This document shows positions 13,222-35,314 of a stretch of DNA of 64,000 nucleotides, one piece after another. Position numbers and translations under genes: made by a program. The notes beneath the pieces are model-generated. The model was given only the letters and a program-made list of their open reading frames with translations, did not search any database and was not told where the DNA came from. This DNA comes from Eledone cirrhosa. Its lineage: Eukaryota. Location: positions 328,042,001 to 328,106,000 of the forward strand of contig OZ024742.1 in NCBI GenBank assembly GCA_964016885.1, written 5' to 3'. How positions within the stretch are numbered: position 1 is the first letter of the stretch; each line of letters begins with the position of its first letter.

Positions 13222-13560
13222 TCATTAGTTAAACAAAACAAGACCACAAATTTTACAAGGAAGACATTATTAAAAGATTGTCAACATATTTAGTTTGATG
13301 CAAAGAATGTAGAGAATAATAATAATAATAATATTAATAATAATAATGCCCGTTTACAATTGTTTCGCTACTCCGTATAATATTTCTGGATCAGATGACT
13401 ATGTATCATAATTGATCTGGTTCAGTTGAAAATAATTAACATATTTAAAAAAACACAGAGTGGCTCATCGGAACTCAAAGGAATATAAATTAAAATAATG
13501 TTACATAATATAATGTTCCATATATTAGATTTTACTATGGTGCCTTTGTTTCATCAGCTC

Positions 13561-14921
13561 TCTATCACCATCGAGCTGAACCATAAAGTAGGAAACTTCC
13601 TAGACGTCACTCTTGATCTCAACAATAACCTTTATAACCCAACCCTTATCATAAACCAGGCGAAATACTCACATATATTAGCCCACACTCTAACCACCCA
13701 CCGGCAGTCATCAGAGCAGTAATCAAATCTATCTCCTATATGATCTCGATGCTATCAGCAAATGAAGAGATATTTATAAACCACGCACAATATTATAATA
13801 AGGCTCTCTCTGAATCTGGTTATAAACAATCAATTTATTACATACCAAAATGCCATAACACAGCAACTCACCATAATAAAATTAACACTAGAACTAGTAA
13901 TACCTTAGCATATAGCCAGATTCGCCGGAATTTTAGCAGTAACAGCACCTATACAGTGAACTTTAATGGTGGCAGCGGCCTGCTTCCCCACTCCTAGTAG
14001 CAAACTAAGAATCAACCCTAGCATAGGAATGAGAAATGGGATGACAAATAACAAACCCCCAGGTAATAATAACCCTAGGAAGGCCCCTACCAACTCCACT
14101 AGAACCCCTAGAAAGAATAGGCCTAGAAATATCACCTGGCTTAACCCACCATTCTCATCTAATCTAGCCACTAATATCCCCAATCGCTTCTTCTCTATCC
14201 TATCCAAACACTTCCCACTAACCATAGATATTACAAACTCTTTAATAATAAAAACAACATTAAAATCTCATTCTCCACTACACCTAACCTAGCTAGCCAC
14301 ATCGCGTTCAGTAACCATCATAAGCTAAGACACTATAACTCCCACACCGCGGTACCACCACTCCTATCAAATACACCACGCCACTACACCAATAATTACT
14401 CTAGTAGCACACCTCCCCCATCTAATCCTTCTAGCACGGACCAACTGCTTAGGTTAAATAACCCTACTCTCACTAACCGCAGAAGCAACTGCAACTGCCG
14501 CTACCCCAATGCATGCCCATTAAATGGACACTGCCTGACACTCAACATAGTCTATAGGTGCACAGTTGAGACTGCTTCGAATACCAGCTCTTACATCGGG
14601 TCTACCTCTAACCCTTTTAAGGTACGCTATAACGCGCACTCTTTTTCCTTCCGAGATCCTAGCAACAGATGTTCGACATCGCTAGCTAGGCTCATTAAAA
14701 ACCTTAAATTAAACAAAGTTCAACACTCACTAAAATGGGATATCGTAGCTAGGGCACAACCGTTCAATGGACGAAGGAAATCTTGTGATCTCTGTGTTAC
14801 GGAAGCGTATTACATAACTCTATCAAGACCTCTACCAATTAACGATAGAACTGAGGTAACCATTAGCTGTCAACATCGAAGGGCTAATTCCTTCGCCAAT
14901 AGAGTTTTTGACCCAACTTAG
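13561..14921 (+). pseudogene. PLE-D RT C-terminus + GIY-YIG, frameshifted (Naiad-like)
   Basis: GNFLDVTLDL, SNHPP, WLNPPFS, CNCRYPNACPLNGHCL..NIVYRC, YIGSTS, RYNAH, CDLCVTE, SCQHRR; stop at 14919-14921. Confidence 0.9.
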
Positions 14922-15284
14922 TCATGTAGCCCCATCAATAATTGTAGCTAATATGTTAAATTGCTATGAACAACTCGATAATTATAAGTTACCTCCCCTA
15001 CATTGTCTCTCAATTAAATAATTTAAATACTAGCGCTTAACTATAAAATACACACAATCTCTAATCTCTCGAGAAGTTACTTCCCCTGAAACCACCCTCT
15101 AATTAGTAAGGTAAATATGCCCTTTGGCAGCCATCTTGTTACCCATAGGCAGATCTCACACAATGCAGCCTCGACAGATGAGTACTGCTTGATTATGGCT
15201 GACAGCTGATGAAACAAAGGCACCATAGTAAATATATATGGAACATTATATTATGTAACATTATTTTAATTTATATTCCTTTGA

Positions 15285-15407
15285 GTTCCGATGAGCCACT
15301 CAGTGTTTTTTTAAATATGTTAATTATTTTCAACTGAACCAGATCAATTATGATTCATAGTCATCTGATCCAGAAATATTATACGGAGTAGCGAAACAAT
15401 TGTAAAC
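15285..15407 (+). ncRNA. Hammerhead-like motif with greatly extended stem II (inverted copy at ~13352-13474)
   Basis: GUU-CCGAUGA-GCCACUC..~84 nt..GAGUAGC-GAAAC AAUU GUA|AAC; palindromic stem III ACAAUUGU. Confidence 0.6.
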
Positions 15408-15640
15408 GGGCATTATTATTATTATTATTATTGGCGACCTACGTAGTAAATCGTATCATCGTGAGCTCCGCAAAGGTTTGTTATTTCCGTTTGTTAAAAA
15501 TTGCCATTCATGGAAAATTTTTATTGTTAACCATATATAAGCAGACATACATTGTTTTCCGAAAAGGACACCCAAAAAGATTGGGGCCTTGTGCCCAAAA
15601 TTTAAACTTTTATTATTATCAAAAATTTCTTTGAAAAAAA

Positions 15641-17608
15641 ATGGCTAATTCACCTCTGCACCAAGCAGCTGAAAGCCTTCCTCACAAATTAACACCTCAC
15701 ACCGACACCATCATTGTAAATGTTACTACGTTTGCCAACACAAAAAAATATAAGCAGTAGCAATATTTTAAATTTGTCTCAGGCAGACATTCATTTCCCG
15801 CCATTACCAATGACTGCAGGTGTTAAAGCCTCCACCACCACCACCACCGCGACAACCCCCCCCCAACCACCACCGCGACAACAGAAACAAAAGAAGAAAA
15901 AAATAAATTAACTCGTGATGTCGAAATGAAATCAAGCAAATGGACTCTTCCGCACCAAAGACGACTGACGTCACCACCACCACAACTGAAACTAAAATTA
16001 ATATTAACATAAATAACGATAGCAACAACAACAACAATGACATTATAAAACCGACCCTCAGTTTCGCCAGAGTAGCAAAACAGTTCGAAGCATTTACGGT
16101 ATCTCAGGAGGATTTAGAAAATGCCAAACAAATGGTAAAGAAAGATGGGTACACGGTCAGCCTCACCCCCCACCTAATAAAATGGAGCATCGGCGCCTAT
16201 GCACCGTGTCGTATAGAACAATAAATGTAAAATCGCGCCGAGTGGAACGGGCATCCGAGTCCCAAATCCAAAAAGATTTGGGACATGTGTGGGCAAGAAA
16301 AACCTACATCAGACGTGGACAAAAGTATGGAACCGTGGACGTGTTCTTTGAAACACCAGAGGAGGCTAGAGAACACTCCATCGCCCCATTAAGAAGTGAC
16401 GACTTCACACTCGTCCCAAGCTATTGTGGCCAGAGACTCGTAAAGATCAGGGTGACCCACGTTCCACCGGCCATCGAAATTCCCTGGCTAATAGCGGCCG
16501 TCCTCGCCGGCATCGAAGCCAACACGAAAATAATAGCAATAGCAAAAGAAAAGCAGGAGAACTGGTCCGGATCTGGGATGGAGCTCCTGATCCAAGCGGA
16601 CCAAAAAAGCATTGAGGAGATCCCAGAGGTAATAGACCTCATTGACGGCAGCCACCTCACGGTAATTGTCGAGGGCAGAAGACCTAGGTGTGTCGTTTGT
16701 GGTGAAGGAACCCACCTAAGGGCTTTCTGCCCTCAGGCTAAAAGGTTGAGGTCACCTCTCCTACCCACCCCAGTGACACAACCATCAACACCACCAGTAG
16801 CAGAGATGGCAGCAACAACTGTAGCAGCAAAAACAGTAGCAACTATAACAGCAACAACGCCAGCAACAGTAGCAAAACCAACACCACCACCACCACCACC
16901 CAACGCTTCAGAACTAGCACCAGCGCCTACACCATCCACCACGCCACAACCAAAACTAACGCCTGTGGAGGATTTTCCACTCCCCGGCCTATCACAACTG
17001 GAGACAGATTGTGACGACGAGGAGTGGGAAACGATATCCTGAAAAAAAAAGAAACCAAAAAAGAAAAAATTCTCTTCCTTCCCCCTCCAAAAACAAAATA
17101 CAGAGGAAAACAAATAAACTAAGAAACAAAAAAGTTAGGACAGATATGCCACCATCCACACCAGCATCACCAACCCCATCAACCCAAACACCAACACCAT
17201 CACCATCATTAACTCCAACACCACCATCACCTACACCACAAAAGTCACCAAAATGCGAAACAGAAACAAACCCACAACAAACGCAAACAAAACAAAACAA
17301 CCAAAACGATACACACTACACAGCATTAAATTTGAACAACAAGCAATTATTACACTACATCCAACACAACACCAGCATCACAGAAAAAGACTACACAACA
17401 ACCCCAAAATTCACACCACCTCCACACATACAAATCACTCGCATCACACATAAAACGTACATGACACTAAAACAAAAAATTCCCCAAAGACATCGGAGAC
17501 TTCCGACAAGCACTCTCCAGGAGGATTTATAAGGACATCCTTCCTGAGGAGGCCACAAGCAGTGAACAGGATGGAAAAACCGTCCTTCCCCTACGAGAAG
17601 TAAGGTAA
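15641..17608 (+). pseudogene. Tx1-1 ORF1 (gag-like, CCHC knuckle), frameshifted
   Basis: RGQKYGTVDV, CVVCGEGTHLRAFC and C-terminal FPKDIG align with family-2 ORF1; several frameshifts. Confidence 0.85.
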
Positions 17609-17642
17609 GTGGTCTTTCCCATCTTTTCCACTCCTTTTCAAC

Positions 17643-20600
17643 ATGACCTCACTCAGAATAGGCAGCATAAATGCGCGTGGATTGGGGTCGTCATGGAAGC
17701 AGGGCCACCTGCTCAACGACCTCAGGTCACTAAACATAGATGTAGTGGCCATCAGCGAGACCAGAATCTCCGAAGCACAGGCTTTCGCACCGATCTTCGG
17801 CGGCTACGATGTGTACGCATCTCCCAGCCGTCCGGGATCGGGGGAGGAGTTGCTGTGCTTTTTCGGAGAGGTTTGGATCTTGCCATACGGGCCATCTTCC
17901 TGGACCCAGAAGGTAAGTTGGTGGTGCTGGACGTGACCAGCGGAGACGAGCAAGCTTTCAGGTTAGTGGCCGTCTATGCCCCGACAGGAGCAGGGCGGCC
18001 TGATTTCTTCCGGCGTCTGGAGACCTTTCTTGGAACGTCCCGCTCTTTAGTGTTAGTGGGCGACAGGAACGGGATCTTAGATGCACGCTGGGATTGTGTG
18101 GGATTAGTGGATAGGGAAGGAGGGTGCAAGAGTCTCACCAACCTGCTCAGACGTTTTGAACTGTCTGACAGGTACCGATTGGATTTCCCGAATGTACCAA
18201 TGTGGACTTGGACAAATCGCATAGGGTCATCCAGATCATATCTAGATAGAGTATTTTGTAGGGAAATAGATAGGTCTAGCATAGGCTGTCCACAATTCAA
18301 GATAGTCAGCTACACGGACCACAAATTCGTGATCTGTGTGCTTGAATTAGATAGGCTTCATAGGCGAGGACCCGGCTACTGGAAGCTAAACGCGTCCTTA
18401 CCAGCGCGCAAGGCCTAGAGAGACCGGATTAGCGAACTAGTTAAGCGGGCGTTGACGGGGGCCATCGTCAACAACAAGTGGTGGTTTGCTCTGAAAAGAG
18501 CGATTAGAATAGAGTCCATTAGGTTTAGTAAGACTTTAGCAATAGAGAAAAATAGAGCAGAGGGAGAACTAGTTAGAAAATTAGATGAGGCGCTTAGCAA
18601 AGGCATCGCGACCGACGTACTTGCGGCGAAATTGGCCCTTGACCAATTCTTCAATGCAAAGCACGAAGGCTGCGTTGTCAGAGCTAGGGTGCGTGCTCTC
18701 AGACACGAGGGGACGAAAGCCGTTCAATGGGCCCGAGTGGAGGAGGCGCGTCGTGGCAACAAAGCCACGATCCGGTCTTTGGTGGACCACGACGGGCGCA
18801 TGCTACTCGATCCCGGGCAAATGTGTGAAGCTTTTCAGCGACACTTCGCTCAACTGTTCGGGGGCAGTGGCGGGCCGGATCGAGGGATGGACTTTAGTGT
18901 CTACCTCGACGGACTGCCGCGGCTTTCGGCCACTGAGGCGGAGTGTTGCGAAAAGCCGATAACAACCGCTGAAGTACGGGATGCAATGACTAGTTGCACA
19001 AGGGGTAAATCGCCTGGTTTGGATTGTCTGCCCTATGAACTTTACTTGCAAATGCCAAACTTGTTCGGAGGCCTCTTGGCGGATGTCTACTGCAACTGGC
19101 AACAGAACGTTAGAATTTCCAGCTCTGTGAGCCGAGGAGCGGTGGCGCTGCTGAGAAAGGATCCGAACAAGTGGGATAACATAGACAATTTTAGGCCCAT
19201 AACTCTACTAAACACAGAGTTCAAGATTTTGGCCAAGGTGCTAGCAAAGAGGTTGGCGCTTGTCGTTGGTGGTCTGGTGGGAGAGGCACAGACATGCGCC
19301 ATTCCCGACAGATCCATCCACGACAACCTCCACCTCATGCGATACATCGTAGAGAGGGTAGCTAGGGAACCTGGCACGGGTGGGTCTTTGATCAATTTAG
19401 ATCAGTCGAAAGCCTTCGATAGGGTCGACCATCGTTACCTAGCGGCAGTCCTGAGGGCGGCTGGCTTGGGCCCGTCTTCACAGGCTGGATCGCTGCCATG
19501 CACAGCGACATCTGCTCTGTAGTGAGAGTGAACGGTCACCTTTCGGAACCGTTCAACATCATGCGCTCGGTCCGCCAAGGTTGTCCCCTCTCGTCCCTAT
19601 TGTACGTATTGACTCTCGAGCCCTTACTGCACAAACTGGAGACGTTGAGGGGGATCCCGCGCGAACTAGGATGCGGAAGATCCGTGCCAGCATATGCCGA
19701 CGATGTCACCGTAGTGGTGTCGAACGCCAAACACATCGAGGCGATCGGCACTACACTAAGAGAATACGAAGCGGTGACAGGAGCAATGATCAACCAGGAA
19801 AAGTCAGTGGGCCTGCAGCTCGGCACCTGGAGAGGCAGGTCCATGCCGTCCAACAGCGTCGTCGGACGCTGGACGGACGGACCGGTTAAATTGCTAGGGG
19901 TCTGGTTCAGTCCGGACCTCCAGACGGACAAAAACTGGGACGAGGTGACGAGCAGGGTGGCTTCTCTCACCCAGAAATGGGCCGAGAGGAAGCTATCCCT
20001 GAAAGGTCGAGCGGAGGTGGCTAACGCGTACATCGCGTCCGTCATCTACTACCGCCTGACCGTCGTACCTTGTCCTAAGCCCCGCCTGACTGCGCTGGAA
20101 CGTTTGCTCTTTCGCTTCTTGTGGAAGGGACGCGCTCCGATGGTCAGGCGGTCCATCTGCTGTCAACACCCGCTACGTGGAGGGCTGGGCATGCCGTGGC
20201 TGATGATGCGCAGACACGCGCTCAGGCTACGACATCTCCACCTCTTCCTCGACGGTGATCAGGTGTGGTCGCCGTTTGCTAGACACGTATTTCCCCAGCT
20301 CGTCTCCTTGACGGAGCTGCTGTCCTGGGTCAAGCGAAGACCGAGAGGGAGCGCTTGGAGACTGGAATGTCTTCAGGCGCTCACAGCCCTCGACCAATCG
20401 GGCAATGTGATCGGTGGAAACTCCACCTTGGCGTTCTATAGGGGATTAGTGGAAGGGAAGAGCGACGACGTACTTGGAGAAACTCTAGGCGTCGACGAAA
20501 ATCAACTAGCCAATCTCTACGGAAGGACTTTCGGGCCGGGGCCTATGGACAACTTCCAGAAATCCCTGGCCTGGCAGTGCTACCGGGGTACTTTGCCAGT

Positions 20601-21060
20601 TCGGGATAAACTTTACAGGCATGGAGGTGCCGTCAGCCGGGAATGTCCGAGATGCGCACAGGGCGACGAAACCGTCCTGCACGCACTCGTCCAGTGTCCG
20701 AGCATTGCTGACTTGTGGGTTTATGTCGAACACCTGCTGTCACGTGTAGGACGGATCCAGCTATCAGCTGAGTCCATCGTGAGGATTGCCCCGCCCTCTT
20801 CCTTTAGCCGGGAAGGGCAGGCAGTTTTTATCTGCCTGGTGGCCATGGTGAAAGAGATAGTATGGTGGACACGTTTGAAAGGGCTGAAGACGAGCACTTA
20901 CCTCTTCGGTGATGCTCTGATTGACTTTTTCAAATTTCATTTGAAAAGTAAAATCAGAGTAGAGGGGGAAGTACTCTCTTCCCAGCATTTTGTTGAAAGA
21001 TGGGTGAGAGAAGCAAGAATGGCCCGAGTGAATGGGCCTTCTCTGAGTATGTGTCTCTAA
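17643..21060 (+). pseudogene. Tx1-1 ORF2 (APE endonuclease-RT-Zn finger), disrupted
   Basis: GSINARGL, VYAP, SYLDR, LDQSKAFDRVDH, RQGCPLS, YADD, CPRC..HALVQC, split over four ORFs by frameshifts and a stop. Confidence 0.93.
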
Positions 21061-21846
21061 ATTAAAGGTGGAAAACTGGGAGAGGGCACTTGCCCTGGTG
21101 GTCAGGGCCACTGTGGTCTTTTAATGGGCTTTCTCCACAAATGTCCCTCGGAAGTCTCCCCCCTATTGGGGAATTTTTCTTTGTTATTTTATTTCATCCT
21201 CTGTTTTTTTTACACGCAGAAATGCCCATTTGTACCGTCCTGTATTGTCCTGTACTGTCCTTAATGTCTACTTTATGTAAACCCTTGTGGTTAATAAAGA
21301 AAACATTATTATTAATATTATTATTATTATTATTCTCTACATTCTTTGCATCAAACTAAATATGTTGACAATCTTTTAATAATGTCTTCCTTGTGAAATT
21401 TGTGGTCTTGTTTTGCTTAAATAATGAATATTTCCAGCTCTGCGCACCTAACCTCTGCATGAACCCAGCCACCTAGCTGCTTTCTACTGCATATTGCACA
21501 TTGAGCACATGCCTTTACGCTTTGGCTTCTAACTAACTCACCAATCTTTCCTCTCATATCTCCTCTACTATCTCAATCTCTCTCTTTAAGATTGGTTACT
21601 CTTGAACTGTGTATATATATATATATATATTTTATATATATATATATGTATATGTGTATTTTTATATATATATATATATGTGTGTATATTTTATATATGT
21701 GTGTATTTTATATGTATGTATATTTTATATATATATATTTTATATATATATATATTTGATATATATATATGTCTTATATATATATATTTGATATATATAT
21801 ATATATATATACTTGTGCGTACATATATATACACACCTGTATAGAT

Positions 21847-22146
21847 TTGTGCGTGTAGACGTGTGTGTATCTGATGGGGTAGGTGTGAGTGTATGTACAA
21901 GTCAACCAACATAAGCCTTTTATTTCTAAATTTTCTAAACTATCTAAGTATTTTGACTCTAACCATTAATTTAAGTATTACCACCCCACATTAATTCCTC
22001 AATTTGTATGTGTGGATGTGTGTGTGTGTCTGTGGAGATGGGTGTGAGTGTACGTGCAAGCCAACCTACATAAGTCTTTTTATTTGTAAATTTTTTACTC
22101 TAAACATAAATTAAAGTAGCACCATTCCACATAAATTCCTCAATTT
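21847..22146. repeat. Diverged tandem duplication, ~150-bp unit
   Basis: GGTGTGAGTGTA.GT.CAAG.CAACC.ACATAAG...CCACAT.AATTCCTCAATTT occurs twice. Confidence 0.75.
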
Positions 22147-22451
22147 AAGAATGACCTGTAGTATCTATTTCATACTATTAATCTTAATTGAATATATATC
22201 TGACCAGGAATGCTTTTTGTGAAAATCAGTCATATGGAACTATTGTCATCTTGCCTGACGGTTTGAACTTTACAACACCACCTGTCTCTTTGAGGTCAAA
22301 TACCAACCTACTAGCATCTACAAACTGACCAATGAGAATTAAGACTATTTCTGCTGACAACATTAAATTATTCCTAACAAGCTCATATGTCCCAAGGCTC
22401 TGATACCATCAACACTATCAACACAGATCTGGCATATCTAAGAACTGACTA

Positions 22452-22507
22452 ACTGCCTGATGAGGTCATAGCCATTCAATGGCTATCATCGAAATATATA
22501 CAGCAGT
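22452..22507 (+). ncRNA. Hammerhead ribozyme motif, probable PLE terminal remnant
   Basis: ACUGC-CUGAUGA-GGUcAUAGCCA uucaa UGGCUAUcAUC-GAAA UAUA UA caGCAGU; stem I is offset by 2 nt; followed by AATAAA and (TA)n. Confidence 0.7.
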
Positions 22508-22632
22508 AAATAAAGGAATTATGAGTTCATGCAATTGACTTATGTTTCGTCACTATATATATATATACATATATGTTGATTCAAAACTGCACTATTCACA
22601 AGTGTTTTTTAACCTTCATATCATGTCTTCCT

Positions 22633-22701
22633 ATTTTATCTGATGAAAACACAAATATTATTGCATGTTGATATTTGTTTTTGAAATGCGCATAATAAAA
22701 T
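22633..22701 (+). ncRNA. Hammerhead ribozyme with intact core and palindromic stem III
   Basis: AUUUUAU-CUGAUGA-(13/14-bp stem II)-GAAA UGCGCA UA|AUAAAAU; same family as 10384-10649. Confidence 0.8.
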
Positions 22702-22886
22702 ACATGGAACTCTTTTAACCATCTTTTGATCTTATATATTATATATACATATATATATTTATTCAAATAACAGATTAAAGTTTAAGCAAAGAATCGCTGC
22801 TTTCACCCTTAACGGGATCTTATATTTGATATATAATTATCCTCATCGAGCCCTCTTTGGATATTAGTCTTCAAATTTATTATTAC

Positions 22887-22919
<33 letters not shown>

Positions 22920-23160
22920 ACGTCTGTACATGTGTGTATATGTGTGTATGTGTGTGTGTTTGTTTGTGTGAATATGGCTAACTACATATACATTCTTTCT
23001 CTATTACAAACACTCACATAGTTCTCGATCCAACCAAATTCAGTAGAAATATTTATTTATATAGCTACCATCGGTTACCTCCTTAAGAGAGAACATTGTT
23101 GTCGTTAACAGCGAGCAGTCGTTCACCTTACATACGCTGGCTTTAACGTACAATTTCCGT

Positions 23161-23191
23161 TTGGTAGTAGTAGTAGTGGTAGTGTTAGTGA

Positions 23192-23222
<31 letters not shown>

Positions 23223-23436
23223 GATGGTGGTGGTGGTAGTAGTAATGGTGGCAGTAATAGTACTAGTAGTAGTACTAATAGTAGTAGTAGTGATGGTAGT
23301 GGTAGTAGTAGTAGTGGTGGTGGTAGTAGTGGTGGTGGTAGTAATAGTAATAGAAGTAGTAGTAGTGATGGTGGTGGTAGTAGTAATAGTGGTAGTAGTA
23401 GTAGTAGTAGTGGTGGTGGTGGTCGTGGTGGTGGAA

Positions 23437-23483
<47 letters not shown>

Positions 23484-23623
23484 GGAGTTAGTAATTGTAG
23501 TAGTAGTGGTGGTGGTGGTGGTGGTAGTAGTGGTGGTGGGGTAGTAGTAGTAGTGGTAGTAGTAGCAGTGGTGGTAGTAGTAGTAGTGGTGGTAGTATTA
23601 CATTTATTATTATTATTATTATT
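23161..23623. repeat. (GTA)n/(GTG)n compound trinucleotide repeat ending in (ATT)n
   Basis: Directly visible; resumes at 36286-36520. Confidence 0.95.
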
Positions 23624-23834
23624 GACGAAAGTGGATGTACGTTTTTTGAAGCTCCGTGAGTAAGCAATTTTTTGAGGATTAATTGTGGAGAATTGTTTAT
23701 TTTGTTGTACCGCTGAAGCATTATAAGACATTCATTTGTATCCTGTGAAGGAATAACTCATAATATTTGGGCCTTTTGGCCCAAATATTTGAACTTTATT
23801 TTGGAAAAATAATAATTTTTTTTCTCAAAAAAAC

Positions 23835-25762
23835 ATGGCGGAGCCACGCCCCCTAGAGGCGGGTCTGCTGTCGTGCAACGGCGACTTGAGCGTTGAGAGG
23901 AGAGGTGGGGCGAGGAGCGCCACCAGCACGAGTGTGAGCAGCGACAGTGCCAGCACCAACGGGCCGAGCGGCGCGGAAGGTGGTAACAGCGACAACACCA
24001 ACACCAACAAGCCGAACAGCGCAGAAGGTGGTAATAGCGAGAGCACCAATAAAACGAACAGCACAGAGAGTAATAGTAGCGACAGCAGCAGCACCAACAA
24101 GGCCAACAGCACAGAGGGTAACCACGACACAGGGGAGAACAACAACAGCAATAGCAGCAGCAACACCAACAAGAACAACAACAGTGACAACACCAACAAG
24201 AACACCTTCGCTGCTGTGGCAGCGGCTAAAAGGAGACCATGCTACAGCATCGACTTAACCAACAGAGAGGAAAAGTTGGCCCAGGCCTGGAAAATCATAA
24301 ATCAAGAGCAGACCTGGGCAGAGAGCAGACCTGGGCAAACTTAACTGTCCCGGCAGAAGCCATTGAGGCAGTGGAAAAAAGAACGGTGCATTTCAGATGC
24401 ATCTCAGTAGAGACAAAGAGGGCAGCGATAATCGCCCAAGCTGACATAGAAGCCGCACTGAAATACATCAGAGAGGACACAGACTTCATAGAGAGGGGCA
24501 GGCAATACGGCACCGTTTCGGTGCTGTTCAAGTCTGAAGCCCTCGCTGTGAAGCATTCAATGACCCCTTGCAAAACCAGCAAGGTCATAATGTACCCCTC
24601 CCACATGGGAAAACGAATAGCACGTGTGCGCATTCCCAGGATTCCACCAGGACTTGATATGTGGTGGCTCCTGGGTTGCGTAATCGTGGAAGGAACGGAT
24701 ACAGTCCCGGTAGAGGCAACGAGAACTGCCAGGGACGACTGGTCCGGGGTTGATCTGGAGATACTGCTCCAAATCAGACCCGAAAACGTGAAAGCAATCC
24801 CGGACCACATCCGCCTCCAAAACGGGAGGGTGTTGCATATAATGACTGAGGGCAAAAGGCCGCATTGTTTCCTTTGTGGGGAAACGACACACTTGCGAGC
24901 CTTCTGCCCTCAACTGCCGAAAAGCGCAAGGGGTCGAAAGATTCCACTGCTGGCGACGCCGGGACAAGGACCACCAGCAACACCGTCAACAATGGAACCA
25001 CCAAAATTGCACACCCAGGGGGGAAACGAGGAAAGCTCTCCCATTCCCCCTCCCCCCAAAAATACACACACGAAGAAGAACATAAACACTCACTCAGACA
25101 CAAACACGCTCACAGCCACAGACCCCTCATCCTCCAGCAGTGAAGATGAGGGAAAACCAAAGTCCCCCAAAATACAAAAAACAAAACACAAAAAAAAAAG
25201 AAATCCACAAAGCACAAACACCCCCACAAAAGAAAATACACACACCACCCACACAAACATTTTCCCCACAGCATCACCAACACAACCACCAAAATCCCCC
25301 AAACGCAAACAAGCTAAACAGACACAAGAACAAATAGACACACAAACATCAGAAACTACAGACACCCCACCCACAACAAACGCAGACACAATAGAAACAA
25401 CACTAACAAAGCTATCACCACCACAATCACACGAACAAATAAAACCCGAGCAACAAAACATTAAAAACTTCGTGCTTGCCAGAAGGGCCAACAAGGAATT
25501 GATGGCCCATGTAGCACGAAGCACAAACATCGAAAAAGACGGGGAAACATTTGAAGCGAGCACATTTCGCGTACCAGATAATTTGCTTCTGATGCGAATG
25601 TCGCTCGCTTCATACAAAGAAATTCGAAAGAGCTTTCCTCGGGATGTGGGAACCCCGAACGTAAAACCCACGTCAAGACTATTAAAGGGGTTCCCAAAAG
25701 AAACCCCACAAACCATGGAGGTCGAACCACCCGACCTTCACAAGACCCCGGAAGGTAAGTAA
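23835..25762 (+). pseudogene. ORF1 (Ser/Asn-rich N-terminus, CCHC knuckle, Thr/Pro/Lys-rich linker) with one frameshift
   Basis: CFLCGETTHLRAFC; a 17-nt duplication-insertion at 24321-24337, absent from copy b, shifts the frame. Confidence 0.88.
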
Positions 25763-25791
25763 ACCTTTCCTCTCCCATTCATCCTGCCAGC

Positions 25792-28700
25792 ATGGCCATA
25801 AGAGTAGGAAGTTTAAATGTTCGTGGCCTGGGGTCGCCCTGGAAGCAAGGTCACTTGCTCAACGACCTCAGGTCACTAGGAATGGATGTAATTGCCATCA
25901 GCGAGACCAGAATTTCCGACACACGCGCACTGGCGCCGATTTTCGACGATTATCAGATCTTTGCATCTGTTAGTCGGCCGGGAATGGGAGGTGGAGTGGC
26001 TGTGCTGTTTAGGAAATGTCTGGATCTCGAGGTAAGGTCAATCTTCCGGGATCCTGACGGAAAGTTGGTGGTCCTGGACGTGAGCAATAGCGAAGGTGGT
26101 GCCTTTAGACTGGTGGCCGTCTACGCCCCTACTGGGGCCGGTCGGCCGGACTTCTTTAGGCGCCTGGAAAACTTTCTGCTTACGTCTCGCCCTTTACTGT
26201 TAATAGGGGATTGGAATGGCATCTTAGAAGCACGCTGGGATTGTGTGGGAGTATCTGATAGGAGCGGGGGGTGCAAAAGCCTCAAGTACCTGATCAGCCA
26301 GTTTCAACTGTCTGACAGGTACCGACTAGATTTCCCTAATGCGCCAGTATGGACCTGGACCAATCGCATAGGGTCATCTAGATCGTACATAGATAGGATT
26401 TTCATTAGGAAAAGAGATAGAAATAGTGTAGGATGTCCACATTTTAAAACGGTTGCCTATTCAGATCACAAGCTTGTGATCTGTATGGTCGACCTAGATA
26501 AGACACGTAGGTTAGGACCTAGCTACTGGAAGCTAAACATGTCGTTTCCGGCACGTAAAGCTTACAGGGACCGGGTCAACAACTTAGTTAAGCAAAAGTT
26601 GACAGGGGGGGTTGTCAACAACAGGTGGTGGGGGGCACTCAAAAGAGAGATTAGAGCAACCTCGATAGGATTTAGCAAAGAAGTAGCAATAGAGAAAAAT
26701 AGAAAGGAGGAGGGGCTGATAGCTAAGTTAGACGAGGCTATTTGTAGTGGCATTGCAACAGACGTGCTAGCGGCGAGAATGGCACTAGACCATTTCTTCA
26801 ATGCGAAACACGAAGGTTGCATTGTCAGAGCTAAGGCGCGTGCTCTGAGGAACGAGGGAACCAAAGCTGCCCGATGGGCTCGCTTTGCAGAGACGCAGCG
26901 TGGAAATAAAACCACAATTCGGTCTTTGACGGATCGAGATGGACACGAACTGAGCGATTCCAAGCGGATGTGTGAGGCCTTTCGCCAGCACTTTGCTCGA
27001 TTGTTCGGGAGGATGGGTGAGTCGGAGACGGCGGCGGACTTCAGTCCCTACCTCGACGGCTTGCCACGCCTCTCGACGGCCGACGCTGGGCGCTGCGAAG
27101 AGCCGATAACATCAGCCGAAATTCAGGACGCCCTTGTCGGCTGCTCGAGTCGCAAGTCACCCGGTTTGGATGGTCTGCCCTACGAGCTTTACGTAAATAT
27201 GCCAGACTTGTTCTCCGATCTCCTCGAAGCGCTCTACTGCAACTGGCAGCAGAACGGGAGCATTCCCAGTTCTGTGAGCCGTGGCGTAGTGACGCTGATA
27301 AGGAAAGACGAGAACAAGAGGGACACACTAGATAATTTCAGGCCCATAACCCTGCTCAACACAGAGTTTAAGATTTTGGCCAAGGTGTTAGCGAAAAGGT
27401 TGGCGCTTGTCGTCAAAGATTTGGTTGGGGAGGCGCAAACTTGCGCAATCCCGACCAGGTCCATACACGACAACCTCCACCTCATGCGATACATCATAGA
27501 GAGGGTTGGGTGCAAACCTGGCTTCGGTGGGGCTCTGATCAATTTAGATCAATCGAAAGCATTCGATAGGGTCGACCATCGGTACTTGGAGGCTGTCCTC
27601 GAGGCGGCTGGCTTCGGCCCCGTCTTCAGAAGCTGGATCGCTGCAATGTACAGCGGCATCCGCTCGGTGGTCAAAGTTAATGGCCACCTCTCGGAACCGT
27701 TTCAGATCTCTCGATCGGTCCGTCAAGGGTGCCCTCTCTCCTCACTTCTGTACGTATTGACTCTTGAGCCTCTACTGCGGAAGCTGGAGTTGTTGCAGGG
27801 CATCCCGCTCGAACCGGGACGTAGAAAGGCTGCGTCCGCTTATGCGGACGACATCACCGTGATGGTGTCGGACACCTCGGAAATCGAGGTGATCCGCACC
27901 CATTTGGAGGAATATGAAAGGTTGACGGGAGCAAAACTTAACCCGGAAAAGTCGGTGGGCTTGCAGCTCGGCACCTGGAGAGGCAAGTCCATGCCGTCCA
28001 ACAGCGTCGTTGGGCGCTGGACAGACGGACCGGTAAAGTTGCTCGGGGTTTGGTTCGGACCAGACCTCCAGGTGGATAAGAATTGGGACGAGGTGACGAG
28101 CAGGATAGCCAACCTCACCCAGAAATGGGCGGAGAGAAAGCTATCACTGAAAGGGCGGGCGGAGGTGGCGAACGCGTACATCGCGTCCGTCATCTACTAC
28201 CGCCTGACCGTCGTGCCTTGCCCCCGTCCACGCCTCGCCAATTTGGAACGGCTCCTTTTCAAATTTTTGTGGAGGGGACGGGTCCCGTTGGTGAGGCGGT
28301 CCATCTGCTGCCAGCACCCTCTTCGTGGAGGGCTGGGCATGCCGTGGCTAATGATGCGCAGACATGCGCTGAGGCTGCGGCATCTCCAGATATTTTGCCT
28401 AAACGGTGAACAGGTGTGGTCGCCGTTTGTTAGACGGGCCTTTCCGCAGCTCATCTCTTTGACTGAGCTGCAGTCCTGGGTCAAGAAGAGACCGAGACTG
28501 GGCGACTGGCATCTGGAATGTTGCCAGGCGCTCACTGCACTCTGCAAGGTGGGCAATGCGGTCAGTGGAACTTCCACTCAAGATTTCTATAGAGGATTAG
28601 TGGAGGGCAAGTGCGATGACGTACTAGGAGAGGCTCTGGGCGTCAACGAAGTAGAACTGACCAGTATGTTCCGGAGGACTTTCGAGCCGGGGACGATGGA

Positions 28701-29211
28701 TAACTTCCAGAAATCCCTCGCTTGGCAGTGCTACCGGGGGGCGCTGCCGGTTCGGGATAAACTCTACAGGCACGGAAGTGCTGTCAGACGAACCTGCCCG
28801 AGATGCGCGCAGAGCGACGAAACCGTTCTGCACGCACTCGTCCAGTGTCCGTGCATTGCTGACTTGTGGGGTTATGTCGAACAGCTATTGTCGCGTGTAG
28901 AACGGATCCGGCTATCGTCCGAGTCCATAGTGAAGATTGACCCGCCGCCTTCTTTTGGTCAGGAAGGGCAGGCAATTTTCCTCTGCCTGGTGGCAGTAGC
29001 GAAAGAGGTTGCATGGTGGACCAGGTTGAAAGGACTGAAGACAGACACTTTTCTCTTCGGCCAATCCCTCATCAACTTCTTCAAGTTTCACTTGGAAAGG
29101 AAGGTGAGGGTGGAGAGAGAAGTGCTGCCCCCCAGTACATTTACTGAAAGGTGGGTGAATGTGGCGAGAATGGCCCGCGTGAGTGGGCCTACTCTGATCA
29201 TGCGCCTGTAG
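25792..29211 (+). CDS. Intact ORF2: APE endonuclease, reverse transcriptase, C-terminal Zn finger (1139 aa)
   Basis: GSLNVRGL, ISET, VYAP, GDWNG, SYIDR, SDH; KSPGLDG, FRPITLLN, LDQSKAFDRVDH, RQGCPLS, YADD; CPRC...HALVQC. Confidence 0.97.
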   Translation: MAIRVGSLNVRGLGSPWKQGHLLNDLRSLGMDVIAISETRISDTRALAPIFDDYQIFASVSRPGMGGGVAVLFRKCLDLEVRSIFRDPDGKLVVLDVSNSEGGAFRLVAVYAPTGAGRPDFFRRLENFLLTSRPLLLIGDWNGILEARWDCVGVSDRSGGCKSLKYLISQFQLSDRYRLDFPNAPVWTWTNRIGSSRSYIDRIFIRKRDRNSVGCPHFKTVAYSDHKLVICMVDLDKTRRLGPSYWKLNMSFPARKAYRDRVNNLVKQKLTGGVVNNRWWGALKREIRATSIGFSKEVAIEKNRKEEGLIAKLDEAICSGIATDVLAARMALDHFFNAKHEGCIVRAKARALRNEGTKAARWARFAETQRGNKTTIRSLTDRDGHELSDSKRMCEAFRQHFARLFGRMGESETAADFSPYLDGLPRLSTADAGRCEEPITSAEIQDALVGCSSRKSPGLDGLPYELYVNMPDLFSDLLEALYCNWQQNGSIPSSVSRGVVTLIRKDENKRDTLDNFRPITLLNTEFKILAKVLAKRLALVVKDLVGEAQTCAIPTRSIHDNLHLMRYIIERVGCKPGFGGALINLDQSKAFDRVDHRYLEAVLEAAGFGPVFRSWIAAMYSGIRSVVKVNGHLSEPFQISRSVRQGCPLSSLLYVLTLEPLLRKLELLQGIPLEPGRRKAASAYADDITVMVSDTSEIEVIRTHLEEYERLTGAKLNPEKSVGLQLGTWRGKSMPSNSVVGRWTDGPVKLLGVWFGPDLQVDKNWDEVTSRIANLTQKWAERKLSLKGRAEVANAYIASVIYYRLTVVPCPRPRLANLERLLFKFLWRGRVPLVRRSICCQHPLRGGLGMPWLMMRRHALRLRHLQIFCLNGEQVWSPFVRRAFPQLISLTELQSWVKKRPRLGDWHLECCQALTALCKVGNAVSGTSTQDFYRGLVEGKCDDVLGEALGVNEVELTSMFRRTFEPGTMDNFQKSLAWQCYRGALPVRDKLYRHGSAVRRTCPRCAQSDETVLHALVQCPCIADLWGYVEQLLSRVERIRLSSESIVKIDPPPSFGQEGQAIFLCLVAVAKEVAWWTRLKGLKTDTFLFGQSLINFFKFHLERKVRVEREVLPPSTFTERWVNVARMARVSGPTLIMRL

Positions 29212-29699
29212 GCTGGTGAATTCGAGAAGGAGAGGGGTGCCCTTCCCGGGTGCCCTAGGAGCGTCGGGTGGCTCAGGACTGGTGGGGTGCTTGAGTCAAC
29301 CCTGGGTGGTGATCCCTCTTATTGGGGAACTTTCATTGTTGTACTTTTATTGTTATTTTGTTTTTGTTTTTTTGTTATTTATACTTACTCGATCTCTATG
29401 TAAACCCCCACTGTCCCTGTCTATTGTGTTGTCCCCTATATGTCGGCCCTTGTGGCCAATAAATGAAATCATTATTATTATTATTATTGACGAAAGTGGA
29501 TGTACGTTTTTTGAAGCTCCGTGAGTAAGCAATTTTTTGAGGATTAATTGTGGAGAATTGTTTATTTTGTTGTACCGCTGAAGCATTATAAGACATTCAT
29601 TTGTATCCTGTGAAGGAATAACTCATAATATTTGGGCCTTTTGGCCTAAATATTTGAACTTTATTTTGGAAAAATAATAATTTTTTTTCTCAAAAAAAC

Positions 29700-31596
29700 A
29701 TGGCGGAGCCACGCCCCCTAGAGGCGGGTCTGCTGTCGTGCAACGGCGACTTGAGCGTTGAGAGGAGAGGTGGGGCGAGGAGCGCCACCAGCACGAGTGT
29801 GAGCAGCGACAGTGCCAGCACCAACGGGCCGAGCGGCGCGGAAGGTGGTAACAGCGACAACACCAACACCAACAAGCCGAACAGCGCAGAAGGTGGTAAT
29901 AGCGAGAGCACCAATAAAACGAACAGCACAGAGAGTAATAGTAGCGACAGCAGCAGCACCAACAAGGCCAACAGCGACACAGGGGAGAACAACAACAGCA
30001 ATAGCAGCAGCAACACCAACAAGAACAACAACAGTGACAACACTAACAAGAACACCTTCGCTGCTGTGGCAGCGGCTAAAAGGAGACCATGCTACAGCAT
30101 CGACTTAACCAACAGAGAGGAAAAGTTGGCCCAGGCCTGGAAAATCATAAATCAAGAGCAGACCTGGGCAAACTTAACTGTCCCGGCAGAAGCCATTGAG
30201 GCAGTGGAAAAAAGAACGGTGCATTTCAGATGCATCTCAGTAGAGACAAAGAGGGCAGCGATAATCGCCCAAGCTGATATAGAAGCCGCACTGAAACACA
30301 TCAGAGAGGACACAGACTTCATAGAGAGGGGCAGGCAATACGGCACCGTTTCGGTGCTGTTCAAGTCTGAAGCCCTCGCTGTGAAGCATTCAATGACCCC
30401 TTGCAAAACCAGCAAGGTCATAATGTACCCCTCCCACATGGGAAAACGAATAGCACGTGTGCGCATTCCCAGGATTCCACCAGGACTTGATATGTGGTGG
30501 CTCCTGGGTTGCGTAATCGTGGAAGGAACGGATACAGTCCCGGTAGAGGCAACGAGAACTGCCAGGGACGACTGGTCCGGGGTTGATCTGGAGATACTGC
30601 TCCAAATCAGACCCGAAAACGTAAAAGCAATCCCGGACCACATCCGCCTCCAAAACGGGAGGGTGTTGCATATAATGACTGAGGGCAAAAGGCCGCATTG
30701 TTTCCTTTGTGGGGAAACGACACACTTGCGAGCCTTCTGCCCTCAACTGCCGAAAAGCGCAAGGGGTCGAAAGATTCCACTGCTGGCGACGCCGGGACAA
30801 GGACCACCAGCAACACCGTCAACAATGGAACCACCAAAATTGCACACCCAGGGGCGAAACGAGGAAAGCTCTCCCATTCTCCCTCCCCCCCAAAATACAC
30901 ACACGAACAAGAACATAAACACTCACTCAGACACAAACACGCTCACAGCCACAGACCCCTCATCCTCCAGCAGCGAAGATGAGGGAAAACCAAAGTCCCC
31001 CAAAATACAAAAAACAAAACACAAAAAAAAAAAGAAATCCACAAAGCACAAACACCCCCACAAAAAAAAATACACACACCACCCACACAAACATTTTCCC
31101 CACAGCATCACCAACACAACCACCAAAATCCCCCAAACGCAAACAAGCTAAACAGACACAAGAACAAATAGACACACAAACATCAGAAACTACAGACACC
31201 CCACCCACAACAAACGCAGACACAATAGAAACAACACTAACAAAGCTATCACCACCACAATCACACGAACAAATAAAACCCGAGCAACAAAACATTAAAA
31301 ACTTCGTGCTTGCCAGAAGGGCCAACAAGGAATTGATGGCCCATGTAGCACGAAGCACAAACATCGAAAAAGACGGGGAAACATTTGAAGCGAGCACATT
31401 TCGCGTACCAGATAATTTGCTTCTGATGCGAATGTCGCTCGCTTCATACAAAGAAATTCGAAAGAGCTTTCCTCGGGATGTGGGAACCCCGAACGTAAAA
31501 CCCACGTCAAGACTATTAAAGGGGTTCCCAAAAGAAACCCCACAAACCATGGAGGTCGAACCACCCGACCTTCACAAGATCTCGGAAGGTAAGTAA
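29700..31596 (+). pseudogene. ORF1 copy b; a single +1 A in a homopolymer at ~31023-31033
   Basis: A11 here versus A10 in copy a; otherwise open, so this could be an assembly error. Confidence 0.85.
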
Positions 31597-31625
31597 ACCT
31601 TTCCTCTCCCATTCATCCTGCCAGC

Positions 31626-34600
31626 ATGGCCATAAGAGTAGGAAGTTTAAATGTTCGTGGCCTGGGGTCGCCCTGGAAGCAAGGTCACTTGCTCAACGAC
31701 CTCAGGTCACTAGGAATGGATGTAATTGCCATCAGCGAGACCAGAATTTCCGACACACGCGCACTGGCGCCGATTTTCGACGATTATCAGATCTTTGCAT
31801 CTGTTAGTCGGCCGGGAATGGGAGGTGGAGTGGCTGTGCTGTTTAGGAAATGTCTGGATCTCGAGGTAAGGTCAATCTTCCGGGATCCTGACGGAAAGTT
31901 GGTGGTCCTGGACGTGAGCAATAGCGAAGGTGGTGCCTTTAGACTGGTGGCCGTCTACGCCCTTACTGGGGCCGGTCGGCCGGACTTCTTTAGGCGCCTG
32001 GAAAACTTTCTGCTTACGTCTCGCCCTTTACTGTTAATAGGGGATTAGAATGGCATCTTAGAAGCACGCTGGGATTGTGTGGGAGTATCTGATAGGAGCG
32101 GGGGGTGCAAAAGCCTCAAGTACCTGATCAGCCAGTTTCAACTGTCTGACAGGTACCGACTAGATTTCCCTAATGCGCCAGTATGGACCTGGACCAATCG
32201 CATAGGGTCATCTAGATCGTACATAGATAGGATTTTCATTAGGAAAAGAGATAGAAATAGTGTAGGATGTCCACATTTTAAAACGGTTGCCTATTCAGAT
32301 CACAAGCTTGTGATCTGTATGGTCGACCTAGATAAGACACGTAGGTTAGGACCTAGCTACTGGAAGCTAAACATGTCGTTTCCGGCACGTAAAGCTTACA
32401 GGGACCGGGTCAACAACTTAGTTAAGCAAAAGTTGACAGGGGGGGGTTGTCAACAACAGGTGGTGGGGGGCTCTCAAAAGAGAGATTAGAGCAACCTCGA
32501 TAGGATTTAGCAAAGAAGTAGCAATAGAGAAAAATAGAAAGGAGGAGGGGCTGATAGCTAAGTTAGACGAGGCTATTTGTAGTGGCATTGCAACAGACGT
32601 GCTAGCGGCGAGAATGGCACTAGACCATTTCTTCAATGCGAAATACGAAGGTTGCATTGTCAGAGCTAAGGCGCGTGCTCTGAGGAACGAGGGAACCAAA
32701 GCTGCCCGATGGGCTCGCTTTGCAGAGACGCAGCGTGGAAATAAAACCACAATTCGGTCTTTGACGGATCGAGATGGACACGAACTGAGCGATTCCAAGC
32801 AGATGTGTGAGGCCTTTCGCCAGCACTTTGCTCGATTTTTCGGGAGGATGGGTGAGTCGGAGACGGCGGCGGACTACAGTCCCTACCTCGACGGCTTGCC
32901 ACGCCTCTCGACGGCCGACGCTGAGCGCTGCGAAGAGCCGATAACATCAGTCGAAATTCAGGACGCCCTTGTCGGCTGCTCGAGTCGCAAGTCACCCGGT
33001 TTGGATGGTCTGCCCTACGAGCTTTACGTAAATATGCCAGACTTGTTCTCCGATCTCCTCGAAGCGCTCTACTGCAACTGGCAGCAGAACGGGAGCATTC
33101 CCAGTTCTGTGAGCCGTGGCGTAGTGACGCTGATAAGGAAAGACGAGAACAAGAGGGACACACTAGATAATTTCAGGCCCATAACCCTGCTCAACACAGA
33201 GTTTAAGATTTTGGCCAAGGTGTTAGCGAAAAGGCTGGCGCTTGTCGTCAAAGATTTGGTTGGGGAGGCGCTAACTTCCGCAATCCCGACCAGGTCCATA
33301 CACGACAACCTCCACCTCATGCGATACATCATAGAGAGGGTTGGGTGCAAACCTGGCTTCGGTGGGGCTCTGATCAATTTAGATCAATCGAAAGCATTCG
33401 ATAGGGTCGACCATCGGTACTTGGAGGCTGTCCTCGAGGCGGCTGGCTTCGGCCCCGTCTTCAGAAGCTGGATCGCTGCAATGTACAGCGGCATCTGCTC
33501 GGTGGTCAAAGTTAATGGCCACCTCTCGGAACCGTTTCAGATCTCTCGATCGGTCCGTCAAGGGTGCCCTCTCTCCTCACTTCTGTACGTATTGACTCTT
33601 GAGCCTCTACTGCGGAAGCTGGAGTTGTTGCAGGGCATCCCGCTCGAACCGGGACGTAGAAAGGCCGCGTCCGCTTATGCGGACGACATCACCGTGATGG
33701 TTTCGGACACCTCGGAAATCGAGGTGATCCGCACCCATTTGGAGGAATATGAAAGGTTGACGGGAGCAAAACTTAACCCGGAAAAGTCGGTGGGCTTGCA
33801 GCTCGGCACCTGGAGAGGCAAGTCCATGCCGTCCAACAGCGTCGTTGGGCGCTGGACAGACGGACCGGTAAAGTTGCTCGGGGTTTGTTTCGGACCAGAC
33901 CTCCAGGTCGATAAGAATTGGAACGAGGTGACGAGCAGGATAGCCAACCTCGCCCAGAAATGGGCTGAGAGAAAGCTATCACTGAAAGGGCGGGCGGAGG
34001 TGGCGAACGCGTACATCGCGTCCGTCATCTACTACCGCCTGATCGTCGTGCCTTGCCCCCGTCCACGCCTCGCCAATTTGGAACGGCTCCTTTTCAAATT
34101 TTTGTGGAGGGGACGGGTCCCGTTGGTGAGGCGGTCCATCTGCTGCCAGCACCCTCTTCGTGGAGGGCTGGGCATGCCGTGGCTAATGATGCGCAGACAT
34201 GCGCTGAGGCTGCGACATCTCCAGATATTTTGCCTAAACGGTGAACAGGTGTGGTCGCCGTTTGTTAGACGGGCCTTTCCGTAGCTCATCTCTTTGACTG
34301 AGCTGCAGTCCTGGGTCAAGAAGAGACCGAGACTGGGCGACTGGCATCTGGAATGTTGCCAGGCGCTCACTGCACTCTGCAAGGTGGGCAATGCGGTCAG
34401 TGGAACTTCCACTCAAGATTTCTATAGAGGATTAGTGGAGGGCAAGTGCGATGACGTACTAGGAGAGGCTCTGGGCGTCAACGAAGTAGAACTGACCAGT
34501 ATGTTCCGGAGGACTTTCGAGCCGGGGACGATGGATAACTTCCAGAAATCCCTCGCTTGGCAGTGCTACCGGGGGGCGCTGCCGGTTCGGGATAAACTCT

Positions 34601-35046
34601 ACAGGCACGGAAGTGCTGTCAGACGAACCTGCCCGAGATGCGCGCAGAGCGACGAAACCGTTCTGCACGCACTCGTCCAGTGTCCGTGCATTGCTGACTT
34701 GTGGGGTTATGTCGAACAGCTATTGTCGCGTGTAGAACGGATCCGGCTATCGTCCGAGTCCATAGTGAAGATTGACCCGCCGCCTTCTTTTGGTCAGGAA
34801 GAGCAGGCAATTTTCCTCTGCCTGGTGGCAGTAGCGAAAGAGGTTGCATGGTGGACCAGGTTGAAAGGACTGAAGACGGACACTTTTCTCTTCGGCCAAT
34901 CCCTCATCTACTTCTTCAAGTTTCACTTGGAAAGGAAGGTGAGGGTGGAGAGAGAAGTGCTGCCCCCCAGTACATTTACTGAAAGGTGGGTGAATGTGGC
35001 GAGAATGGCCCGCGTGAGTGGGCCTACTCTGATCATGCGCCTGTAG
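31626..35046 (+). pseudogene. ORF2 copy b, disrupted
   Basis: TGG>TAG at 32046-32048, an extra G in the run at ~32439-32447 and CAG>TAG at 34282-34284 relative to copy a. Confidence 0.92.
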
Positions 35047-35314
35047 GCTGGTGAATTCGAGAAGGAGAGGGGTGCCCTTCCCGGGTGCCCTAGGAGCGTC
35101 GGGTGGCTCAGGACTGGTGGGGTGCTTGAGTCAACCCTGGGTGGTGATCCCTCTTATTGGGGAACTTTCATTGTTGTATTTTTATTGTTATTTTGTTTTT
35201 TGTTATTTATACTTACTCGATCTCTATGTAAACCCCCACTGTCCCTGTCTATTGTGTTGTCCCCTATATGTCGGCCCTTGTGGCCAATAAATGAAATCAT
35301 TATTATTATTACTA

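Follow-up and report, generated by a model that had tools for sequence, protein, structure and literature searches.

ATT microsatellites as insertion sites of an L1-clade LINE lineage in the octopus Eledone cirrhosa

Three full-length long interspersed nuclear elements (LINEs) lie in a 64,000-nucleotide (nt) stretch of the Eledone cirrhosa genome (assembly GCA_964016885.1, contig OZ024742.1, positions 328,042,001 to 328,106,000 of the forward strand; hereafter the window), each between runs of ATT, and the question raised by this locus is whether such a repeat is a target, a tail or something that the element brings with it. A reading of the sequence only had proposed that two L1/Tx1 families target (ATT)n in a fixed phase; targeting on one strand and in one phase is upheld genome-wide, as (ATT)3+G precedes 318/324 of the family-B 5' ends (background 10/57,182 positions, 0.017%), and the (ATT)n on the 3' side is pre-existing target, not just a tail. 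The favoured reading of the whole chain, given a probability of roughly 0.62, is that an apurinic/apyrimidinic endonuclease (APE) domain would nick the AAT strand and that AUU repeats at both ends of the element RNA would pair with the target. The elements (E1 to E3), their open reading frames (ORFs) and their junctions are as follows.

15412..15432, plus strand: (ATT)7, 5' junction of E1; pure, without the AAT interruption that a 13-20 nt target-site duplication (TSD) would copy from the target
15433..21304, plus strand: E1, full-length family-A L1-clade LINE, lodged in an (ATT)n tract that belongs to a multicopy host repeat
21280..21298, plus strand: E1 3' stem-loop AACC-CTTGT-GGTT, then AATAAA (family A), read from the sequence
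21305..21334, plus strand: (ATT)3-AAT-(ATT)6, target microsatellite predating E1, matching empty paralogues
23606..23623, plus strand: (ATT)6, 5' junction of E2, terminating a degenerate (GTA)n array
23624..29470, plus strand: E2, full-length family-B LINE of a young subfamily
23835..25762, plus strand: ORF1 of E2, with predicted tandem RRM-like domains and one CCHC knuckle
25792..29211, plus strand: ORF2 of E2, intact, 1139 amino acids (aa), with APE, reverse transcriptase (RT) and zf-RVT domains by Pfam
29445..29463, plus strand: E2 3' stem-loop GGCC-CTTGT-GGCC, then AATAAA (family B), read from the sequence
29471..29488, plus strand: (ATT)6 spacer separating E2 and E3
29489..35298, plus strand: E3, full-length LINE of family B that has diverged further than E2; ORFs broken
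35299..35311, plus strand: (ATT)4+A, 3' junction of E3

The coordinates first proposed for the three elements are exact on re-reading; all three start at ATT|G, end at C|ATT and lack poly(A), with AATAAA 6 nt before the end in E1 and 7 nt before it in E2 and E3. E1 shares 76% nucleotide identity with E2 and E3 over the ORF2 region only, while E2 and E3 are 98.6% identical; the proposed division into two diverged families stands within the window as families A and B, but genome-wide at least six kinds of 5' head obey the same rule. The loci had also been called independent, which does not describe E2 and E3, as these form one head-to-tail place; they nevertheless look like separate insertions. 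The last 2,278 nt of E2 differ from E3 at 18 positions and from 36/39 dispersed copies at only 3-8, so the pair looks like two insertions and not a local duplication. Every one of the three window copies has at least one broken ORF: in E1 and E3 the ORFs are broken by stops and frameshifts, and ORF1 of E2 is frameshifted at a 17-nt duplication (24305-24337).

Counts by exact pattern across the 3.0-Gb genome give 324 family-B 5' 20-mers, 1,538 B-type 3' ends and 9,671 A-type 3' ends. Among 42 full-length family-B copies, a set taken mostly from the best E2 matches and hence biased to young copies, ORF2 is intact in 35, ORF1 in 28 and the two together in 26. The loci examined yield 164 distinct full-length heads in six kinds (A, B and four related subfamilies), every kind starting with G, and the perfect in-phase repeat upstream of them reaches at least 9 nt in 157/164 and at least 15 nt in 148/164. 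Sequence beyond this repeat is unrelated among most full-length copies; the tabulated flanks are not random 5' sequence with ATT as a mere tail at the other end. Chimeric or internally deleted copies occur as well (L172, at C3:65912410-65919010, L208 and L119), one example being a D-head/A-type 5' half that passes into a B-type 3' half where the two share a short word; they possibly arise by template switching.

For the 3' side, 84 of the first 100 B-type ends along contig C1 were examined, the other 16 pairing with full-length 5' ends. ATTAT follows directly after 67/84 of them (background 0.30% of 677,988 positions) and the opposite-strand ATAATA after 3/84; runs of at least 12 nt are found in 61% of the ATTAT-starting ends, compared with 2.7% in the background. 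TSDs were sought at 3' ends whose repeat goes no further than ATTATTA (97 genome-wide, 68 examined, 60 of these in list order), a TSD being 13-20 nt counted from the first base after the element and repeated at the 5' boundary with at most one mismatch. Such duplications are present in 29/58 headless (truncated) copies against 2/58 in an offset control; their first bases are ATTATTA, placed exactly at the 3' junction, and the shortest target comprises two ATT units. The multicopy repeat that hosts E1 was compared at 29 other loci, 25 of them readable with the pattern used: the flanks of E1 are joined through an existing ATT tract in 25/25, and in 23 of the 25 an AAT breaks the tract once at least four units have passed, an interruption that E1 keeps on the 3' side only. 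The 3' repeat is target because the TSDs start at the 3' junction and the empty paralogues already hold the microsatellite. Four contig runs were also compared with the E1 locus; no joint across E1 was seen among the matches listed, rows at repeat ends being skipped, and the family was seen under four organism labels in these runs.

The host of E1 is a multicopy Penelope-like element (window 13315-15411 and 21305-21560) with a broken ORF that gives a weak GIY-YIG match (14175-14918, E 0.079). Its terminal repeat, inside which the ATT tract of E1 sits, has an inverted copy at ~13315-13560 and 1,506 first-look candidates in the genome.

An account without any targeting would take (ATT)n as a 3' tail and explain the 5' repeats by duplication in tandem or by elements landing by chance in tails, which are abundant. 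Tandem arrays do exist: ten family-B copies stand head-to-tail at C1:423367686-423420171 (C1:423.37-423.42 Mb; L305, L306) with a spacing of ~5.83 kb, the last copy abutting a B-type 3' end of opposite orientation, and the neighbours in this array differ less among themselves (5 mismatches) than from dispersed copies (9 or more), which suggests that the array reflects some tandem amplification. As a general explanation this account is hardly credible: unique TSDs begin at the first base past the element, the empty paralogues contain the tract, the 5' flanks of most full-length copies are unrelated and the enrichment is hundreds- to thousands-fold. A tail only, or a tandem duplication, is ruled out by the rule at 318/324 5' ends, the TSDs, the empty paralogues and the distances between E2 and the dispersed copies.

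The repeat on the 5' side has to be considered separately. The fixed 5' phase is not direct evidence of the cut site, because full-length copies are mostly without the expected TSD and probably bring an ATT leader. Nine of the ten copies with a head in the 68-locus set have a pure in-phase run of 12-33 nt without non-ATT TSD bases, and a TSD is kept in 1/10 full-length versus 29/58 truncated copies (Fisher p=0.035). The 5' side of E1 is pure (ATT)7, though a TSD of 13-20 nt would have carried the AAT interruption there; family-A or D-head full-length copies that leave the repeat early at the 3' flank have a pure 5' run in 5/5 (two of the five differ by one base, possibly a later mutation), and full-length copies keep pure (ATT)n|G even at targets whose repeat ends with its second unit. 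One phase in 318/324 ends cannot come from TSDs of variable length, so the 5' repeat is not a plain TSD; that origin is ruled out for most full-length copies by the E1 flank and by the 9/10 copies without duplicated bases. The RNA probably starts within the upstream repeat, with the complementary DNA (cDNA) of its (AUU)n leader annealing to the target.

It is also conceivable that the targeting is real and that the pure 5' (ATT)n comes from RT jumping or slipping on target DNA after a start at G, or from later slippage that purifies the tract. G begins all six heads, as a capped or ribozyme-cut RNA could, and microsatellites mutate fast; yet a jump to the top-strand end should keep the whole TSD and give a variable phase, where one phase is seen in 318/324, and young, 99%-identical copies (L167, L177, L358, L372) are already without a TSD. 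The heads have no Rfam ribozyme match, although ribozymes like that of hepatitis delta virus (HDV) can escape Rfam models; an Rfam scan of 13000-36600 gave nothing near the gathering score and no ribozyme. This origin is considered distinctly improbable next to a leader transcribed from the repeat. Heads B, D, H and J carry a 5-mer resembling a downstream promoter element (DPE; RGWYV) at element positions 10-14 (window 23633-23637; L172, L267, L354, L376), head I carries it at positions 11-15 and head A lacks it. With RGWYV presumably the DPE consensus and +28 its spacing, the start would fall on the A of the sixth upstream ATT unit, to which this post hoc match points weakly.

Close to the 3' end one CTTGT loop is held by different stems, which among 430 sites are GGCC/GGCC in 151 (family B) and AACC/GGTT in 69 (family A); TGGC/GCCA (53) and TGGC/GCCT (50) belong to a ~185-nt repeat in which tRNA-like boxes were read by eye. 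This repeat, which resembles a short interspersed nuclear element (SINE), is followed by ATTAT at 101/122 ends and has a TSD of at least 12 nt from the 3' junction in 19/97 informative ends versus 6 controls; the stem-loop and SINE counts are of copies, not of independent events. LINE and SINE have only the stem-loop in common, not a long 3' tail; the covarying stem-loop and the same insertion signature make the tRNA-like SINE a likely partner of the LINE. The stem-loop also occurs in mini-insertions of 27-34 nt, made up of the terminal stem-loop and AATAAA alone, each with its own TSD and piled up (L254, L342, L345, L357, L361, L363, L375, L386, L251, L268, L270, L277, L292); many of these B-type insertions start just before the stem, as if RT often stalls there. 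In the 5' untranslated region (UTR) of family B a strong hairpin is found at window 23762-23789 (z -5.4), and at a like position in the family-A 5' UTR (window 15582-15599) there is a GGGC-CTTGT-GCCC resembling the 3' stem-loop, at 22 sites.

The enzyme that would act at these sites is encoded by ORF2 of E2, which had been read as intact and is confirmed as such. Its Pfam matches are PF03372, PF00078 and PF13966, corresponding to an N-terminal APE (aa 7-226), an RT (aa 509-753, with YADD) and a C-terminal zinc-binding motif (zf-RVT, aa 974-1026); in an alignment to human L1 ORF2p the catalytic motifs of APE and RT are intact, with N9, E38, Y111, D140, N142, D201 and H226 of the APE aligned to the human protein. 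In the PDB the human L1 ORF2p is matched at E 4e-56 over aa 4-853 and R2 at 3.5e-22 over the RT only, a coarse comparison of clades, as L1 and R2 are the only ones present there at full length. ORF1 is 620-636 aa long in intact genomic copies; its core is predicted to fold into tandem RRM-like domains plus a CCHC knuckle (pLDDT 85.6), the best structural match being IMP3 RRM12 (E 4e-6, though with a TM score of just 0.3-0.5), and it falls with zf-CCHC/ZCCHC3-like clusters in the Atlas.

The nearest named homologues are from Argonauta hians (67%) and a cuttlefish. A quick RT tree was made from 41 database hits, P0071 being dropped at the length filter, and from eight genome copies, each represented by one tblastn segment; it unites nine genome rows with the Argonauta hians protein and one unnamed NCBI protein at support 100, and the sister of the Argonauta-containing group consists of unnamed proteins of 40% identity. 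No named Tx1 protein was among the homologue-search hits, the cluster look-ups or the Atlas, and the tree thus has none. Membership of the L1 clade, in the broad sense, is supported; its traits are all present, namely an ORF2 with APE, RT and zinc motif, a separate ORF1 with predicted RNA-binding domains, and TSDs of 13-20 nt. Insertion into a specific multicopy sequence is a Tx1-like trait, and the lineage works like a target-specific Tx1 element, a likeness of behaviour. Membership of the Dong/R4 clade, marked by a single ORF with a C-terminal restriction-like endonuclease, is ruled out by the two ORFs and the N-terminal APE, and a relaxed L1 of mammalian type, which has a 3' poly(A) tail and nicks at TTTT/AA, by the lack of poly(A) and by ATTAT at the 3' junction in 201/226 ends. 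Eighty metagenome loci (24-39% identity) hold no ATT/AAT run of at least 5 units and are too distant as relatives to inform on the target; TC or TG runs stand at the contig ends of a few, and some of these distant relatives (L410, L411, L412, L413, L416; ~30% identity) have (TC)n at 5' contig ends, recalling Kibi-type targets.

The start and length of the TSDs give the positions of the nicks. Insertions end right in front of 5'-ATTAT(T), whose first base also opens the 13-20 bp duplication of truncated copies; as deduced from these duplications, the first nick is placed on the bottom strand, after the last base of 5'-AATAAT, and the second would fall 13-20 nt downstream. Both nicks would be made by the APE domain of ORF2, for which specificity for the ATT repeat is likely on this evidence. 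An AATAAA 6-7 nt from the end would put cleavage and polyadenylation within the downstream repeat, giving an RNA of the form element-(AUU)n-poly(A); the primer would then pair with AUU units, and RT would begin at the element end, mostly adding nothing and sometimes one or two units. With transcription beginning inside the upstream repeat, the cDNA would end in (AAT)n, which could anneal to the top-strand overhang while the unpaired flap is trimmed. ORF2 would recognise the 3' CUUGU stem-loop and hence also mobilise the tRNA-like SINE into the same sites; every insertion would leave new ATT targets on both sides, from which nested and head-to-tail piles could grow.

Selection of the site might instead be guided by the RNA, with a relaxed APE that nicks AT-rich DNA loosely and only those nicks extended that pair with a read-through (AUU)n. 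In its favour, a site of no more than two ATT units can be enough, the APE has a hairpin-loop region that aligns gap-free with that of the promiscuous human L1 where Tx1L has an extended tip (PMC1950540), and the added units in L107 and L139 (SINE) and in L368 (LINE) show that AUU-containing templates are copied. Set against this, the insertion L251 (GTTATT, 16-nt TSD) would have had a mismatched primer end, TSD lengths are tight at 13-20 nt, and the characterised Tx1L endonuclease is sequence-specific in vitro (PMC1950540). Guidance by the RNA with a relaxed enzyme is regarded as unlikely, and cleavage by an APE specific for the AAT strand is preferred.

Several observations weigh against this preferred chain. 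At the C1 3' ends 17/84 do not start with ATTAT, and the excess of long 3' runs may reflect a preference for long tracts or added units. Half of the truncated copies (29/58) are without a TSD as defined here, mostly older ones with uncertain boundaries, and family A gave one clear TSD in 20 loci (L484, 22 nt). The 3' hairpin alone is no more stable than shuffled sequences (z -1.2 and -1.5). L251 starts at GTTATT with a clean 16-nt TSD and the full-length copy L341 retains a 15-nt TSD, so pairing is not obligatory. Where TSDs are measurable, left and right run lengths are equal in 10 LINE and 9 SINE copies and the left is longer in 6; credible extra units on the right are limited to one LINE (L368) and two SINEs (L107, L139), as six of seven LINE rows flagged as added proved on inspection by eye to be simple-repeat matches off the boundary and were excluded, and the 68-locus set, being selected for short 3' runs, is not a measure of how often units are added.

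Two sequences often found next to the 3' repeat belong to other LINEs, whose 3' ends face it in opposite orientation; they end in (AAT)n and carry a C-terminal CCHC and a PD..D..K motif, read by eye. These two families meet the present elements tail-to-tail in the same repeat (L059, L198, L119, L009, L200, L067); they are predicted to be Dong/R4-like from the motif and from the activity of Dong-R4 in Octopus vulgaris (PMC13282606). Farther along the window, 36656-64000 is a 27-kb TG-rich satellite with a period of ~38/79 nt that reaches the window end, and the minus-strand ORFs listed over it are probably repeat artefacts.

How APE-type elements target microsatellites at the molecular level is, by one account, not yet well understood (PMC3812793). 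The present lineage makes it testable: nick position and TSD length are readable from natural copies, the 3' and 5' steps of insertion are separable, and young copies in which neither ORF is broken are numerous. To the targets of L1/Tx1 elements it adds one made of A and T alone; it also offers a likely animal example of an L1-clade LINE/SINE pair of the stringent type and, with the putative Dong-like neighbours, two unrelated LINE clades on opposite strands of one microsatellite. About 9,700 A-type and 1,500 B-type 3' ends amount to a sizeable force on the ATT tracts of this genome, and an annotation in which the 3' ATT counts as tail will put the ends of elements in the wrong place. A wider picture, tentative and somewhat doubtful as a whole, is of an uncatalogued octopod lineage living wholly in (ATT)n, with start and polyadenylation inside the repeat, both RNA ends paired, an (AAT)n-specific APE, a SINE driven via the CUUGU stem-loop and Dong-like elements converging from the other strand.

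Among known systems, the closest by description are the microsatellite-specific Tx1 families Kibi, in (TC)n, Koshi, in (TTC)n, and the crocodilian elements in (TTCC)n/(TTTC)n (PMC4494074, PMC3812793); these are likewise APE-type L1/Tx1-like LINEs specific to a microsatellite, but the present target is the AT-only (ATT)n, and the comparison is of descriptions, not sequences. The R4-clade element Dong has as its target the TAA microsatellites of silkworm, mosquito and snail (PMC3812793), the same class of microsatellite; it differs in clade and endonuclease. PMC3812793 groups Dong with APE types, and R4 elements carry a restriction-like endonuclease (PMC4640811), where the present lineage has an N-terminal APE; the Dong-like neighbours in this genome use the opposite strand. 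Dong-R4 is the LINE type with the most recently active insertions in Octopus vulgaris, in which L1-Tx1 counts 13 recently active families and 421 insertions; the latter probably include relatives of the present families, and the main text of that paper, as excerpted, has no target-site analysis (PMC13282606).

For the 5' junction, the nearest model is R2, whose RNA keeps 9-36 nt of upstream 28S target, and for which uniform 5' junctions through annealing of cDNA to the target were proposed and tested (PMC3774820). The explanation of uniform junctions is shared, but R2 has a restriction-like endonuclease, a target in 28S ribosomal DNA and an HDV-like ribozyme, none of the last having been found here by the Rfam scan. 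SART1 and TRAS, R1-clade elements of telomeric repeats (PMC7265360), resemble the present elements in having an APE, a fixed phase and orientation in a short tandem repeat, and a need for few units; SART1, besides belonging to another clade, depends on a poly(A) tail and on three or more TTAGG units (PMC7265360), whereas the present elements insert without poly(A) and two ATT units can suffice. In the stringent-type L1-clade LINE/SINE pairs of maize/sorghum and Chlamydomonas (PMC3747384), and in the crocodilian SINEU/Tx1-Mar pair (PMC4494074), what an L1-clade LINE and its SINE have in common is a 3' stem-loop or a target preference; here the putative SINE of an animal L1-clade lineage matches its LINE in both respects, by a covarying 3' stem-loop and by the target signature, and poly(A) is absent. 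The mainly open-access literature yielded no L1 or Tx1 element that targets ATT/AAT, and one may be annotated in Repbase or Dfam; this APE-type L1 lineage is well supported, and as far as that literature goes its ATT repeat is a new target for a known kind of site-seeking element.

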